This document shows, one piece after another, positions 8,457 through 13,992 of a DNA stretch of 64,000 bases. The stretch's first letter is position 1, and every line of letters begins with the position of its first letter. Source of the stretch: a bacterium (lineage in GTDB: Bacteria; SAR324; NAC60-12); contig CBDBHR010000026.1 of assembly GCA_965205865.1 (NCBI GenBank), positions 224,997 through 288,996 on the forward strand. Direction: 5' to 3'. The notes under the pieces are model-generated. The model saw nothing but the letters and a program-made list of their open reading frames with translations. It had not been told where the DNA came from and made no database searches. A program made the translations under genes and the position numbers.

Positions 8457-8560
8457 ATGCGAATTGTTAATTTTTATTTCTTGAACAAAATATTAGAAAT
8501 AGATCCTCATCATCCCTCTCTGAGGCTGCATCAATTGAAAGGTAAATTAAAAAATTTACA
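8457..8560 (+). pseudogene. RelE/YafQ-like toxin fragment cut by IS1380
   Basis: DPHHPSLRLHQLKGKLKNLH then reads into the IS terminal repeat. Confidence 0.6.
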
Positions 8561-10256
8561 CCTAAATCCTGCAATTGAATATTTTGATTGAGTTTCCCCC
8601 CACTCTTTGAGAGGTTTTTTTAAAAAAAAGGATTTGAGAGTTGAATTTCCATCAGTCCTTGCTCATAAAGGTTTTTCCGCCCTCCATTAGATCGTCATAT
8701 TTTGTGATGATCTGATACCCGCTTTCGCGGGCACAAGATTCAAGACGTACTTCTCCCTGGATTTGGGAATCTACATCTCAGCAAAATGTATCCACTGGAG
8801 TGAAACAAAGGATCCAGGTCTCTCCAACAGCGACCCATGCATCCCATTGAGCATTGTAAAGTGTTCTTTCCGGAACTCTCAGTTTTTGTTGACGAGCGCC
8901 ACTCGTCCATTTTCCTGCCATTCGGACAAGATAGGTGCGCATGGTGGCCGGTTCCCAACGGCGCAGTATTGCGTTACCACTACAAAGGGCCATCCAGCGC
9001 AGCGTGTTGTAAGCGAGTATCGCGCATTGGAACAAGGCACTGTTGGCCCAAAAATCGTCGGTTTTAATCTGAGCCAGCGCAGTTTGATTTTTTGCTTCCT
9101 CAATCCATGTCTCAGCGACCGCCCTTTGGCCATACTCTTTGTGAGCCTGCCAGGGAGTGAGCGCGTCAGTGAGAACATAACAAAAATAATCGTACTCCTT
9201 CATCTCAAAGAGGGTGGCCATCCCTTTGAGTTCCTCCTCTTTCTCCCTGCGTACGGCCATGAATTTTCTTGACCTCCTCCAAGTTTCACATTGGTGGGAA
9301 AACTCACACCCTTCCCAAGCGGGCTGCCCCTTCACTTTTTGCCATTTTTGGGTTTCCAACAACGAGACAAGCCCCTTGAGTTTGACCTTGATCAGATAGC
9401 CATGGCCTCGTTCTTCGAGGAAATCCAGCAAATCCCCCACAAAAAAACCACTGTCTCCACGAAACAGAGTGCGAGTCCGATTTGGAAGGTGAGCGAGAAG
9501 TTGCCGCATGAATTCAACGACTCCATTGCTGGTATAGGCACTCCCATCACGAAGCCAACCCTGAAGAATCTCCTTTGTCTCTGCGCAAAATGCCAGCAGA
9601 GGATGATACGAAGCTGCACCGCGTTTGTGGGGATTATATCCGACAGACACTCCTTGCTGCTTGCCGTAGGCCGTTTTCACAGTGGAGTCCACGTCAATCA
9701 CAAGACAGTGTAACACCCCAACGATGCTTGTCCCACTTCGAAGCGCCTTACGCCAGATACCGGCTCGAATCCGATGGTTCAAGCTCTCCATCTCATTGAT
9801 GTTTTTCTGTGTGAAAGTACGCAGTATCCGGCCGAATGTGGTTTCATCCGGAATCCTCAGCCAACCGGCCACACGACTCAAAACACGGTCGTTCCAAACT
9901 GTCACAATCGAACGAATCGAACGGGCGCCACCAACAATGCCGACCACCGACAAAATGACCATGTCCACCGCGTCATAAAGACCCGTGGCGCCACGCCGAT
10001 GATCTACGGTCTGCTCTGTCTTTGAAACAATCCCTTCTTTGTGAAAAAATTTGACAACCGGAATCAAGCCTGCTTGCGCGGTCAGGTCTCTGCCTCCCTG
10101 GCTGATATGGATGTTTTTTGCTGTCGTTCTTGCCGATCTTGCGCTACCTTTGTTTTTCATGGTAATGGTGATCTCTTAAAATGTTGATTCTGGTGTTAAC
10201 TATTTGAGTATATTACCATTTCCATGTTTGATTGTCATCTAATTGCAGGATTTAGG
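8561..10256 (-). mobile_element. IS1380-family insertion sequence, 1696 bp, 16-bp perfect TIR CCTAAATCCTGCAATT
   Basis: TIRs at 8561-8576 and 10241-10256 enclose the transposase; no target duplication seen. Confidence 0.9.
8778..10160 (-). CDS. IS1380-family DDE transposase, apparently intact, 460 aa
   Basis: VIDVDST, GYNPHKRG, FRGDSGF, YGQRAVAETWIEEAK. Confidence 0.9.
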   Translation of the reverse strand: MKNKGSARSARTTAKNIHISQGGRDLTAQAGLIPVVKFFHKEGIVSKTEQTVDHRRGATGLYDAVDMVILSVVGIVGGARSIRSIVTVWNDRVLSRVAGWLRIPDETTFGRILRTFTQKNINEMESLNHRIRAGIWRKALRSGTSIVGVLHCLVIDVDSTVKTAYGKQQGVSVGYNPHKRGAASYHPLLAFCAETKEILQGWLRDGSAYTSNGVVEFMRQLLAHLPNRTRTLFRGDSGFFVGDLLDFLEERGHGYLIKVKLKGLVSLLETQKWQKVKGQPAWEGCEFSHQCETWRRSRKFMAVRREKEEELKGMATLFEMKEYDYFCYVLTDALTPWQAHKEYGQRAVAETWIEEAKNQTALAQIKTDDFWANSALFQCAILAYNTLRWMALCSGNAILRRWEPATMRTYLVRMAGKWTSGARQQKLRVPERTLYNAQWDAWVAVGETWILCFTPVDTFC

Positions 10257-10420
10257 GCATACTCTATTTGATATGTGATTGCTTCGCAGAGTTTGTTTAA
10301 TGCCTCTTCAAAAGTATTCCCGAATCCCATCAGATTCATGGATAATGCTTTTGCATTCCATTTCCCATCTTTTTTTATTCCCAAAATTTGTATTGTTACT
10401 TCAAGATCCGTAACCTTCAT
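10257..10420 (-). pseudogene. HicB-like antitoxin fragment truncated by IS1380
   Basis: GKWNAKALSMNLMGFGNTFEEALNKLCEAI resembles the HicB N-domain; ORF runs into the TIR. Confidence 0.5.
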
Positions 10421-10614
10421 TTCACCCCCCTGCAAGTTAAAATTCATATTATCATGGCAATGCAAAAATTAACGCAATTGTAAACTTTTTAATACTTTGA
10501 TTAAGCCGCGATAGGTAAATCCGGTCTCCATCCTTTCAAACCTCTATTTATACATAATTCATTTTTCTAAAAAAGAAAATATTTAGGATAATTCAATTAA
10601 AAACAAAGAAGGGC

Positions 10615-10688
10615 GTCCGGGTAGAGCCAGTGGTTACCCAGCCAGCCAGCCCCCCCCCCCGCAGATCCGTACGTGAACAATTCGCTCA
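10615..10688 (-). mobile_element. Group II intron 3'-end remnant (partial domain V plus domain VI)
   Basis: Minus strand TGAGCGAATTGTTCACGTACGGATCTGCGGGG...GGTAACCACTGGCTCTACCCGGAC. Confidence 0.8.
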
Positions 10689-10724
10689 AAGAGAAAAATC
10701 AAATCAATGAGCAGCGAAAACATG

Positions 10725-10832
10725 GTCGTAATCCCTTCTCAAATCAGGTCAATTCACTCTCTGATAATGGTTTTTATAAAGCACATCGGATTTATGTGTC
10801 GTAATCCCTTCTCAAATCAGGTCAATTCACTC
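10725..10832 (-). CRISPR. Orphan CRISPR remnant: two identical 35-bp repeats and one 38-bp spacer, with a possible second 36-bp spacer at 10689-10724
   Basis: GTCGTAATCCCTTCTCAAATCAGGTCAATTCACTC at 10725-10759 and 10798-10832; reverse complement ends GGGATTACGAC like CRISPR repeat 3' ends; no cas genes in window. Confidence 0.72.
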
Positions 10833-10858
10833 ACTCAAAGAATACAGACCAATATCTA

Positions 10859-12564
10859 CCTAAATTGAGCGATTCTAAAAAAGGATCAGATTTTCAAGAT
10901 GATTTTTTTGCCTGAGAAAGGCAATCATTCTGAAATCAGATTTTGATCATCAAATCCATGGATGTTTGAGTGAGAATGAGCATCAATATGCTGTTTTCAG
11001 ATGTGGAAAGTCTTCATTTCTCATGTTTTGGACGCACTCATCCCCTTAAACTTTAATGTTTTTGTTTTTTAATTGAAGCGAAACCCGTTGATCAGATTGG
11101 CGCCAATGCATGCTGGCAGGTGGCAAATAGTTGGTCCAATTGCAAGCGCTCAAAGGTCGTTTTGGGTATTTTCAAGATCAGTTTTCCGGCATGACGAAGC
11201 AGTTTGCCTGCCGTATCAAGAAACTGGCGCCGGAAGGTATCAGCATACATCGTTACCGCAATCACTGGCTTGCTGACATCTTCTTTGAAGGCTTCGAAGA
11301 GGTTATTGCCAAGCAGCATCAGATAGTACCATGCGGTATTGGGAATGAAGTTCTTGAAGGGTAGTTGTTGATGACCAAAGTTTTTCAGCGCCCGGTTGGC
11401 CAGTTCATCCTTTCCCCGTCCGTGGTACGAGCCAAGGATGCTATGAGCATCGATGCGCTTTTCTTCAGCGGCTTGGCTGAGTTGGCCATCAATGGCCTCT
11501 CCCATACCAAGGTTCGTAATGATCACGCCATCATGATCCAAACCCGGCAAAGAGAGTTGGCTATCGTGTTCAATCAAGCGGCTGTAGATCGTGCGACGAG
11601 CCTTCTTCCATGTCCCCTGCTGGCTCTTAAACTCGGTGTACTGCCAGCTCCTTCTTGCCCGATGAAGTGAAGGTCCGCCAGTCAGTGGCTTCTTCCGCAG
11701 CATTCCTCACATTGGCATAGGACTTTCCTCCGCTTCAGCTAACCGATGTTCAGTCGTTCACAGGTTTCAAAGATTTTTTCGTCAAAAAAAGCGGCGTCCA
11801 TGCGCAGCATGATTGGTACATCATCTCGGTATTCGCGGCGAATCTTTTTCACGATATGAACCAGCATCTCCTGAACAGTTTTCCCGTGATTCGAATGTTT
11901 GCTACCTCCGCGAAAAACGGCGTCAACCATATAACGACCCCAATTCATCTGCAGGGGATGAAATCCTTTGACCATCATCAAGTACCATCGAATCCAGACC
12001 CAACACAATCACCGTTGGACAAGTCTTCTTCAGTCTCCGGATAAACAGAATCTGCAGCAGATGACGAAACAGGTAGACTCGTACAAAAGAGAACTTTCCA
12101 AAAAATCTTTTCACGGCATGCGAGGAGGCAAGGTCTTGCTCACTGTATGACAGCAACACGGCATAACCCTCATCCCTTTTGAGGTGATCGAACCAACTGA
12201 GATGACGGCTGCTGCCGTCCATGAAAAAACAGAGTATCTGCGCAAAGAAATCAGAGACCGCAATACCTTTTTTATTTTTACGCATCGAACCAAACATCCT
12301 TTCGATGATCGGCATCAGCCGAATACTTTACAGATACTGGGCAAACAAGGCCAATCCGGCACGACTTGTCAAGTGTTCATCGGTTGGTTGAATGGCATCA
12401 ATTACCTGTTTCTTTTTATCCTGAACTGCTATATCTTTTTCCATAAAGCTCTCTACCTGTTGGGTTGTGTTAGATTTTGTGAATGTTTTTATTTTAACCA
12501 CTGAAATATAACACATTTTCCCCAAGGTTGGGAGCTTTTTTTATTACGAATCGCTCAACTTAGG
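10859..12564 (-). mobile_element. Second IS1380-family element, degenerate, 1706 bp
   Basis: 17-bp TIRs CCTAAATTGAGCGATTC / GAATCGCTCAACTTAGG (one mismatch) enclose transposase fragments. Confidence 0.85.
11092..12525 (-). pseudogene. IS1380 transposase broken into at least four frames
   Basis: Fragments with LTSRAGLALF, LGLDSMVLD, LRMDAAFF, YHGRGKDELANRALK. Confidence 0.85.
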
Positions 12565-12627
12565 GATTCGTATTGCCATGATCAAAGTTCTCTTAGCGAA
12601 ATATATTATTTAACAAAACAGGTTCTT

Positions 12628-13992
12628 ATGGAAGTTGAAATTATCATCTTTGTCTTTGTGGTATCCGCCGTCAGTGTAGTCGCTGCGTTTCTGTTCGCAT
12701 TTCGATCACGCAACGAGGTTAAGGGTCTCATCGCCGATAAAGCCAAACTCGGCACCGAACTTGGATCCGTGACCAAGCAACTCAAGGAGGCATCCGCCGA
12801 GGCTGAAACGGCACGACAGTTGGAGGTACGCAAAGCGTCGCTTGAACAAGAGATCAAGAATGTAAACAACCAATTAGACGGATTGAAGGCTGACAAGTAT
12901 TCATCCGATATAAAAGTCGACAAATTGCAGGCCGAGATCCGAAGTGTAGATGCTGAGAAGACCGGGTTGGAGCGCGATCTGAAGAACATCAAGGAGCAAC
13001 TCGGTCAACGCGACGATCTTCAAAACATATTCAAAGACCAGTTCCAGTCACTGTCATCCGAAACACTCAAGAACCAGCATGATCAATTTATCCAGACTGC
13101 AAAACTCACTCTCAAACCACTCGCTGAAAAAGTCGACAAGCTGGACACGGAGTGGACTAAGACGTCGGGGGCATTCAATCAGCAGATCACGATGCTGGCA
13201 TCCGAAACGAAGACATTGTCGTCCGCACTGTCAAAGCCTCATTCGCAGGGGAAGTGGGGTGAGATGCAAGTTGAACGCGCTCTTCAACTTTCCGGTTTGG
13301 AACCAAGAATTCACTATGACACCCAGGAATCCGACAATCAGGGTGGCAGAACGGACTTCATAGTCCACTTGGCGCACAATCGGGACATCATCCTCGACTC
13401 CAAAGTTTCTTTGGTCGCGATTCTGGGTGCTGAACAGGCGGAAACCGAAGAGGACCGTGAACAATATCTGAATCAGCATGCCAAAAATGTCCAGATCCAC
13501 ATCGATGGTTTGAGTAAGAAAGAGTATTGGAATAACTTACCCGATAGCGCCGACTTTGTCGCTATGGTCATGCCTGAATTCGCCCTACCGCCGGCAGTGA
13601 TTCGCATACCGAACCTGCTTGATCGTGCGTTACAGAACAATGTAGTGGTAGTTACATACTCGATGCTGGTCGCACTGTTAAAATGCGTCGCAATGGGATG
13701 GCAGGAACGCAAAGTCGCTGATGAAGCGCGCAACATCAGCGTTCTTGGCAAAAATCTTCATGACCGTTTAGCTACTTTCGCTGAACACGTTGACGATATG
13801 GGACATGCGCTAGGCAAGGCAGTGGATAGTTACAACGCAGGGATTCGCTCGATGGAAACCCGACTTCTTCCTCAAGCCCGGAGGTTTAAAGAGTTAGGAG
13901 TGCCAACTGCGAAGGAATTGCCCGAGTTAGAACCAATAGACAAAGTACCGCAGGCGCTGAACTTCATTTCGCAAAACGGAAAAGAGAACTAA
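12628..13992 (+). CDS. rmuC: DNA recombination protein RmuC
   Basis: N-terminal TM and coiled coil, QGKWGEMQV, IILDSKVSL, LSKKEYW, DFVAMVMP. Confidence 0.88.
   Translation: MEVEIIIFVFVVSAVSVVAAFLFAFRSRNEVKGLIADKAKLGTELGSVTKQLKEASAEAETARQLEVRKASLEQEIKNVNNQLDGLKADKYSSDIKVDKLQAEIRSVDAEKTGLERDLKNIKEQLGQRDDLQNIFKDQFQSLSSETLKNQHDQFIQTAKLTLKPLAEKVDKLDTEWTKTSGAFNQQITMLASETKTLSSALSKPHSQGKWGEMQVERALQLSGLEPRIHYDTQESDNQGGRTDFIVHLAHNRDIILDSKVSLVAILGAEQAETEEDREQYLNQHAKNVQIHIDGLSKKEYWNNLPDSADFVAMVMPEFALPPAVIRIPNLLDRALQNNVVVVTYSMLVALLKCVAMGWQERKVADEARNISVLGKNLHDRLATFAEHVDDMGHALGKAVDSYNAGIRSMETRLLPQARRFKELGVPTAKELPELEPIDKVPQALNFISQNGKEN

Follow-up and report, generated by a model that had tools for sequence, protein, structure and literature searches.

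Small CRISPR arrays that stand apart from cas genes are a well-known kind of object. Virus- and plasmid-borne mini-arrays and solitary repeat units carry one or two spacers and no cas genes, and their repeat matches that of a host system; they are found on mobile genomes and act by targeting rivals or by dampening host immunity. Another described case is the isolated CRISPR3 array of Pseudomonas aeruginosa ATCC 10145, which is active with a distant cas locus as well as adaptive, and whose leader is near-identical to that of the cas-adjacent array (PMC13142298). Its repeats match those of the cas-adjacent array of the same genome, it has no local cas genes, and it is associated with mobile elements, which probably moved or split the array. 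As for the repeats themselves, a type III family processed by Cas6 and ending in GGGATTACGAC occurs in genome bins of Thermodesulfobacteriota and Desulfovibrionaceae. Group II introns are also relevant here, since 5'-truncated copies whose junctions were sealed at microhomologies have been documented (PMC3280974).

The locus considered here lies in a stretch of 64,000 nt (the window; contig C26:224997-288996; C24 and C27 to C30 are further contigs of the same assembly) from a bacterium of the SAR324 lineage NAC60-12. Read along the minus strand, it comprises a decayed insertion sequence (IS-B), a 26-nt presumed partial spacer (S0'), a repeat (R1), a 38-nt spacer (S1), a second repeat (R2), a 37-nt spacer (S2), a 10-nt joint, and the tail of a group II intron. 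It shares with the virus- and plasmid-borne mini-arrays the small number of spacers, the missing cas genes and the match to a host system, but it is chromosomal, lies between IS copies, and has no phage or plasmid genes on its island. With the P. aeruginosa array it has in common the repeats of a cas-adjacent array elsewhere in the genome, the lack of local cas genes, and the company of mobile elements; unlike that array, it is devoid of a leader, retains only two whole repeats, is broken at both ends, and is known here from sequence alone. In our assessment, the mini-array is probably a piece of the genome's type III-B CRISPR array, taken from its interior or trailer side and lacking a leader, that IS-mediated rearrangement left stranded on a 602-bp island. 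Such a finding holds nothing unexpected to a CRISPR specialist; the microhomology joint between repeat and intron is the one detail of some note.

A repeat search of the window returned a 38-nt match at 10725-10762 and 10798-10835, in which 35 nt form the true unit and the excess is a chance run into the spacers. R1 (10798-10832, minus strand) and R2 (10725-10759, minus strand) are mutually identical and spaced 73 nt apart, so that the two identical 35-bp repeats, the 73-bp period and the 38-bp spacer of the sequence-only reading all hold. S1 (10760-10797, minus strand) is the sole spacer with whole repeats on both sides. S2 (10688-10724, minus strand) is T-rich and 37 nt long, or 36 nt with the ambiguous T at 10688 counted as intron; the stretch had been placed at 10689-10724 with 36 bp, of which the spacer-like size stands and the boundary has shifted. 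The complement of S2 reads like a ribosome-binding site followed by ATG. S0' (10833-10858, minus strand) lies directly 5' of the whole R1 and is cut by the end of IS-B. What had been called a one-spacer remnant actually contains two whole spacers and part of a third. The locus has the makings of a CRISPR array, namely at least two direct repeats within the range of 23-50 nt and unique spacers of similar length, with S2 and S0' in register. The fold of the mini-array transcript was no better than that of shuffled sequences (z = -0.92). No cas genes were found adjoining the mini-array, its neighbours being IS transposases, a HicB-like fragment and an RmuC gene; nor do cas1, cas6 or cas10 occur on the window's contig, in agreement with the earlier statement that no cas genes are present.

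A pattern search of the whole assembly found 36 exact copies of the 35-mer in a regular array on another contig (C27:225229-227837), and 10 further copies where the contig ends in an inverted duplicate. R1 is identical to all 36 repeats, and so perfect and regular a recurrence excludes a chance origin. The C27 array lies directly downstream of an uninterrupted operon of cas6, cmr1, cas10/cmr2, cmr3, cmr4, cmr5 and cmr6, followed by a CARF-adenosine deaminase fusion, a CARF-HEPN protein, cas1 and two cas2 genes, and its first repeat begins 238 nt after the second cas2. As cas6 and cmr1-6 are all present as uninterrupted ORFs, the effector module is complete and accompanied by Cas6. The Cas10 carries a GGDD motif. 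Cas6 and Cmr3 score under the NCBIfam curated cut-offs; on Pfam PF10040, with its cut-off of 25 bits, Cas6 reaches 65.4. Across the whole assembly, family searches for cas1, cas6 and cas10 gave hits on C27 only, making this the sole cas locus found. The same repeat does, then, lie beside a cas operon in the genome, as the sequence-only reading had envisaged; the contrary outcome that it had named, a genome with no related repeat or cas locus, did not materialize, given the 36 identical repeats and the intact type III-B locus. Two features of the operon are of separate interest. Its segment C27:219736-223237 encodes two effectors of the cyclic-oligoadenylate type, one of 720 aa with a CARF-like N-terminus fused to the adenosine deaminase domain (Cad1-like) and one of 471 aa, the CARF-HEPN protein (TIGR02710); and the two cas2 genes are in tandem, each encoding 94 aa.

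The main array has 35 assembled spacers of 35-41 nt, and S0', S1 and S2 are not among them. Within the array C27 turns back on itself, C27:227871-234922 repeating 218911-225961 as its reverse complement (99.97% identity). The junction of these final ~7 kb (227838-234922) with the rest of the contig falls inside repeats, repeat 36 passing into a partial reversed repeat and then into the complement of spacer 10; either the assembler folded the contig back or the array underwent a genuine inversion. With C27 folding back before the distal end of the array, we infer the tie between the mini-array and the C27 array from repeat identity alone. A crude array finder revealed no other CRISPR arrays in the assembly, and its two best candidates were plain tandem repeats of 60 and 63 nt. 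Both are long and perfect: C24:88275-89519 consists of 60-nt units, and C30:1064504-1065194 of ~11 copies of a 63-nt unit containing a CCCCCTCGAGGGGGG palindrome; neither is CRISPR.

The crRNA sense, as judged from array context and composition, is the minus strand of the window, on which the repeat begins GAGTGAATTG and ends GGGATTACGAC. Three observations bear on the orientation. The cas operon and the leader on C27 lie upstream of the array in this sense. Across five other genomes or contigs, some of whose arrays adjoin csm genes, conservation covers the 3' 22-27 nt of the repeat and variation its 5' 8-10 nt. The main-array spacers are 61% pyrimidine in the crRNA sense (T 38.5% vs A 20.8%), with pyrimidines exceeding half in 29 of 35, and a CAT plus Shine-Dalgarno complement pattern is seen in 9 of the 35 spacers in this sense versus 2 in the other; both the pyrimidine bias and the antisense start-site pattern are expected if guides must pair with mRNAs. 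Apart from the matter of strand, the bias of the main-array spacers suggests that guides are skewed to the 5' ends of transcripts, even though the Cas1 of this system is without a reverse-transcriptase domain.

Beyond this genome, the 3'-terminal 22 nt of the repeat are found in the arrays of three genome bins (Thermodesulfobacteriota, Desulfovibrionaceae) and on three metagenome contigs, and two of these related arrays adjoin csm genes. The earlier view that the repeat resembles type III/I repeats can be made more specific: the shared 3' end, together with the III-B and csm neighbours, assigns it to a type III-associated family. Members of the GGGATTACGAC-ended family are like the present case in the identity of their 3' 22-27 nt, in the 35-nt repeat, in spacers of 35-41 nt, and in lying beside type III effector genes; they differ in having csm (III-A) genes where this genome has cmr (III-B) genes, and in the 5' 8-10 nt of the repeat. 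In Cas6-dependent type III systems, Cas6 cuts 8 nt before the 3' end of the repeat. The last 8 nt of R1 on the minus strand, ATTACGAC, belong to the part conserved in type III-linked arrays and are the predicted 5' handle of the crRNA, the Cas6 site being likewise a prediction. The exact repeat was found in none of the other genomes searched, and is absent from 40 relatives, of which all but one are also devoid of the cas locus.

The 26 nt between R1 and IS-B (10833-10858) had been presumed to be what remained of a leader side cut by IS1380. The distance and the IS family are borne out; the leader identity is not. These nucleotides show no likeness to the C27 leader, and are without the G/C-rich end (GCCGC-like; AGCGGC in C27) seen before the first repeats in arrays of this repeat family, on which grounds the leader assignment was rejected. 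They are T-rich, as main-array spacers are in the crRNA sense, and are best read as what is left, on the 3' side, of a spacer disrupted by insertion of IS-B. If the 26 nt are a truncated spacer and not a leader, the fragment comes from the interior or the trailer end of an array and is leaderless. In place of a leader with a promoter, then, the mini-array has 26 non-leader nucleotides followed by the IS-B cut, and a scan confined to sigma-70-like promoters detected none on the minus strand at 10836-11300. As a separate observation, leaders in arrays of the repeat family from different genomes end in a similar G/C motif (AGCCGC, GGCCGC, GACCGC; AGCGGC at C27:225210-225228), and this short motif before the first repeat may be an integration signal.

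On the other side of the array, the sequence-only reading had recognized a group II intron domain V/VI remnant at the position of the next repeat, which is confirmed by homology within the genome. The remnant (10615-10687, minus strand, in the same sense as the crRNA) is truncated at its 5' side and holds the apical part and 3' strand of domain V together with domain VI. It amounts to only the last ~73 nt, with neither the ribozyme core (domains I-IV) nor a reverse-transcriptase gene, and is a relic rather than an intron. Its score against Rfam RF00029 is 13.7 bits, below the gathering score of 40, the 5' strand of domain V being missing. At 10606-10688 the sequence matches, with 87% identity, the final 75 nt of the full-length intron C30:877960-880041; that copy itself passes RF00029 (41 bits) and RF02005 (105.8 bits). 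The intron family is represented in the genome by one full copy, one internally deleted copy and one fragment, plus the tail in the window.

The joint between array and intron (10678-10687, minus strand) is the 10-mer GAGCGAATTG, which corresponds to repeat positions 1-10 with one mismatch and at the same time forms part of domain V. Homology to the C30 intron begins at the 10-mer TGAGCGAATTG, one base off repeat positions 1-10, and the joint falls exactly where a third repeat is due after the 37-nt spacer. The microhomology is thus 10 nt with 9 of 10 bases shared, and since such a match has a probability of only ~3 in 100,000 at a random joint (our own calculation, equal base frequencies), the joint was formed at microhomology. 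The possibility that a partial third repeat extends beyond the 10 nt was rejected, as all sequence past them is accounted for by the intron copy. A deletion between direct microhomologies, a 5'-truncated intron insertion with its cDNA end annealing upstream, and a template switch to pre-crRNA by the intron's reverse transcriptase would each fit this joint, and the sequence fits them alike; all three models need the intron and crRNA senses to coincide, and they do coincide. Copies made by retrohoming of linear introns resemble the present one in that the 3' end of the intron is intact, the 5' part is gone, and the upstream joint lies at a short match (PMC3280974). Those junctions, however, were made experimentally in Drosophila embryos, whereas the present joint has a CRISPR repeat as partner and is accounted for just as well by a later deletion. 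Separately, the flanks that follow the intron 3' ends are similar at window 10606-10614, C30:880042-880050 and C30:43049-43057 (GCCCTTCTT, CCCTTTCTT and CCCTTCTC, respectively). This likeness may point to a favoured target site, or to an intron that extends a few nucleotides further; CCCTTCTC is found on the antisense strand of the CRISPR repeat as well.

The element beyond R1, IS-B (10859-12564, minus strand), is a decayed member of the IS1380 family of 1706 bp, ~95% identical to 1752-bp copies elsewhere. Breaks in the transposase frame leave three ORFs (11092-11703, 11739-12008 and 11923-12315), which run in the direction of the crRNA sense. The fragments match Pfam PF13701 and NCBIfam NF033539, with 102.5 bits on the latter, a score under the cut-off owing to truncation. 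The IS1380 element proposed beyond the repeat is upheld by this NF033539 match and by an IS end at 10859, 26 nt from the repeat. More than 20 copies of IS-B are present in the genome; the one in the window belongs to an older subfamily with CCT instead of CCC at the end, whose relics are 97-98% alike. On the far side of the intron tail, IS-A (8560-10256, minus strand) is an intact IS1380-family element of 1697 bp that scores 304.6 bits on NF033539, and its copies in the genome number more than 30, mostly 98-100% identical. The family assignment is further consistent with the DDE transposase, inverted ends beginning CC, and target duplications of 4-5 bp in other copies. Intact IS-B copies have duplications of 5 bp and other IS-A copies of 4 bp, and both window copies have none, the flanks being ATCTA and GATTC for IS-B and TTAC and GCAT for IS-A.

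Since neither flanking IS has a target-site duplication, the 602-bp island between them (10257-10858) is a product of rearrangement, and thus appears to be what remains after several IS-mediated events. The flank beside the intron tail (10235-10614, minus strand) has no other copy in the genome, and consists of intron 3'-exon-like sequence, an upstream region, and a small HicB-like ORF that starts with ATG at 10420, runs into the end of IS-A at 10256 and is truncated there, its Pfam match being faint; the missing half of this gene was not found. Gene order shared with a complete genome of the same genus stops at the end of a histidine kinase gene (window 8398), before IS-A. That genome gave no cas10 match and no copy of the repeat, nor was the ancestral arrangement found in it, and the CRISPR-Cas system looks like a lineage-specific acquisition. 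A reciprocal IS-B partner carrying the rest of the spacer or complementary flanks was sought among 33 left and 43 right ends of the element, and none was seen.

For a stranded fragment of the III-B array, a plausible sequence of events can be proposed. The array would once have ended upstream of an intron copy in the same orientation. The third repeat may then have become fused to domain V, either through a deletion mediated by microhomology or through insertion of a 5'-truncated intron whose end annealed there. Afterwards, a copy of IS-B could have landed in a spacer, and recombination between IS copies would have removed the rest of the array. The lack of a called promoter, of a spacer target and of a reciprocal IS-B partner was counted against this explanation, as were two perfect repeats beside a decayed IS, which could hint at selection or gene conversion. 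An argument for selection on the repeats from the decay of the IS was considered and rejected, because IS-B relics are 97-98% alike and zero changes in 70 nt are not significant. Having no leader, the mini-array would take up no spacers, and probably has no current role under selection.

The sequence-only reading had offered array debris or a solitary guide used in trans. Debris is the better fit; use in trans is conceivable and has gained an identified partner, for the intact III-B locus with identical repeats on another contig makes it physically feasible. The stronger form of this idea, a maintained solitary guide whose crRNAs, made in trans by Cas6 and Cmr, silence a transcript of the host or of a mobile element, or serve as a decoy, is in our estimation unlikely. 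Both repeats are perfect and the same as those of the active-looking C27 array, and an intact type III-B system is at hand. IS1380-family elements such as ISEcp1 are known to drive neighbouring genes, and the transposase frame of IS-B points into the array; the only plausible source of a transcript is, we infer, read-through from IS-B in that direction. Isolated arrays can also be active, as in P. aeruginosa (PMC13142298). The regulatory or decoy role suggested earlier nevertheless finds little to build on, as the locus has neither a self-target nor a recognizable promoter (none was called in the sigma-70-like scan), and no conservation in the 40 relatives, which lack the repeat and, with one exception, the cas locus. 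By blastn-short, in which the 35 main-array spacers were run as well, S0', S1 and S2 match the genome over 13-18 nt only, which is the chance level. In addition, the piece is bounded by three different breakpoints, as wreckage would show.

Viral targets were likewise not found when both spacers were compared with viral collections as the sequence-only reading had proposed. The whole mini-array had no match among 50,697 phage records, four 24-mers covering S1 and S2 had none in IMG/VR, and an S1 24-mer had none in JGI metagenomes. These negatives carry little weight, since the controls, three leader-proximal spacers of the main array and the whole main array, were without viral match too; viruses of this organism are absent from the collections. 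If read-through from IS-B does occur, the lone Cas6, a product of C27, is expected to cleave R1 and R2 8 nt short of their 3' ends, and the predicted products would be one standard S1 crRNA and one S2 crRNA whose 3' end is set by host trimming of the intron tail. Both could load into Cmr, in which case the stranded fragment would be a leftover supply of two old guides rather than a dedicated one. Were it still transcribed, it would show that the wreckage of an array, even without a leader, can keep supplying guides to a type III complex, and such a supply, if real, bears on how long immune memory outlives the integrity of an array.

A more doubtful proposal concerns the origin of the joint, namely that the reverse transcriptase of the intron switched from domain V to an unprocessed pre-crRNA and that the chimeric cDNA was fixed at an intron target site. 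The joint does lie at a 10-nt match, and the intron and crRNA senses agree as this requires, but a plain deletion between direct microhomologies predicts the same orientation and the same joint equally. The 3' flank of the intron tail resembles the 3' exons of other copies (CCCTTCT-like); S0', S1 and S2, however, are absent from the assembled part of the main array, from which such a copy would derive. Group II intron reverse transcriptases readily switch templates in vitro (10.1101/792986). Switching of this kind, as published, is mainly end-to-end, not internal. The other odd intron copy, at C30:42648-43049, had been a candidate for general retro-copying of cellular RNAs by the intron, and was rejected as an internally deleted intron with no fusion to cellular RNA. 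We therefore hold such a retro-copy to be quite improbable; if true, it would be a natural route for retroelements to disperse CRISPR memory. A chimeric join in assembly, across multi-copy IS elements or CRISPR repeats, is more improbable still. In its favour, the assembly has 30 contigs and is 92% complete, a 7-kb inverted duplicate with its junction inside repeats closes the other CRISPR contig, and many other copies match IS-A at 99.9-100% identity. Against it, the IS-B copy, a 95% variant, is distinctive enough for reads across it to be unambiguous, the island lies mid-way in a 307-kb contig, the IS ends are exact at their terminal repeats, the array/intron joint is biological in signature (microhomology and correct repeat register), and a wrong join across IS-A would alter the neighbours rather than the island.

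For annotation, the lone repeats of the window are explained, tied to a specific III-B locus and assigned a strand. The stranded fragment also provides a natural example of insertion sequences and intron relics shredding a CRISPR array in the IS-rich genome of a symbiont, one breakpoint of which can be placed on 10 nt of microhomology shared by a CRISPR repeat and intron domain V. Two minor observations concern the outer side of IS-B. Just past its end lies a ~62-nt repeat (window 12565-12628) that recurs with 79-87% identity at no fewer than 10 other sites on C24, C28, C29 and C30, and looks like a small dispersed intergenic element. The RmuC-family gene beside IS-B (window 12628-13992) has a counterpart of 28% identity at an unrelated place in the complete genome of the same genus, and may belong to a variable or mobile region.
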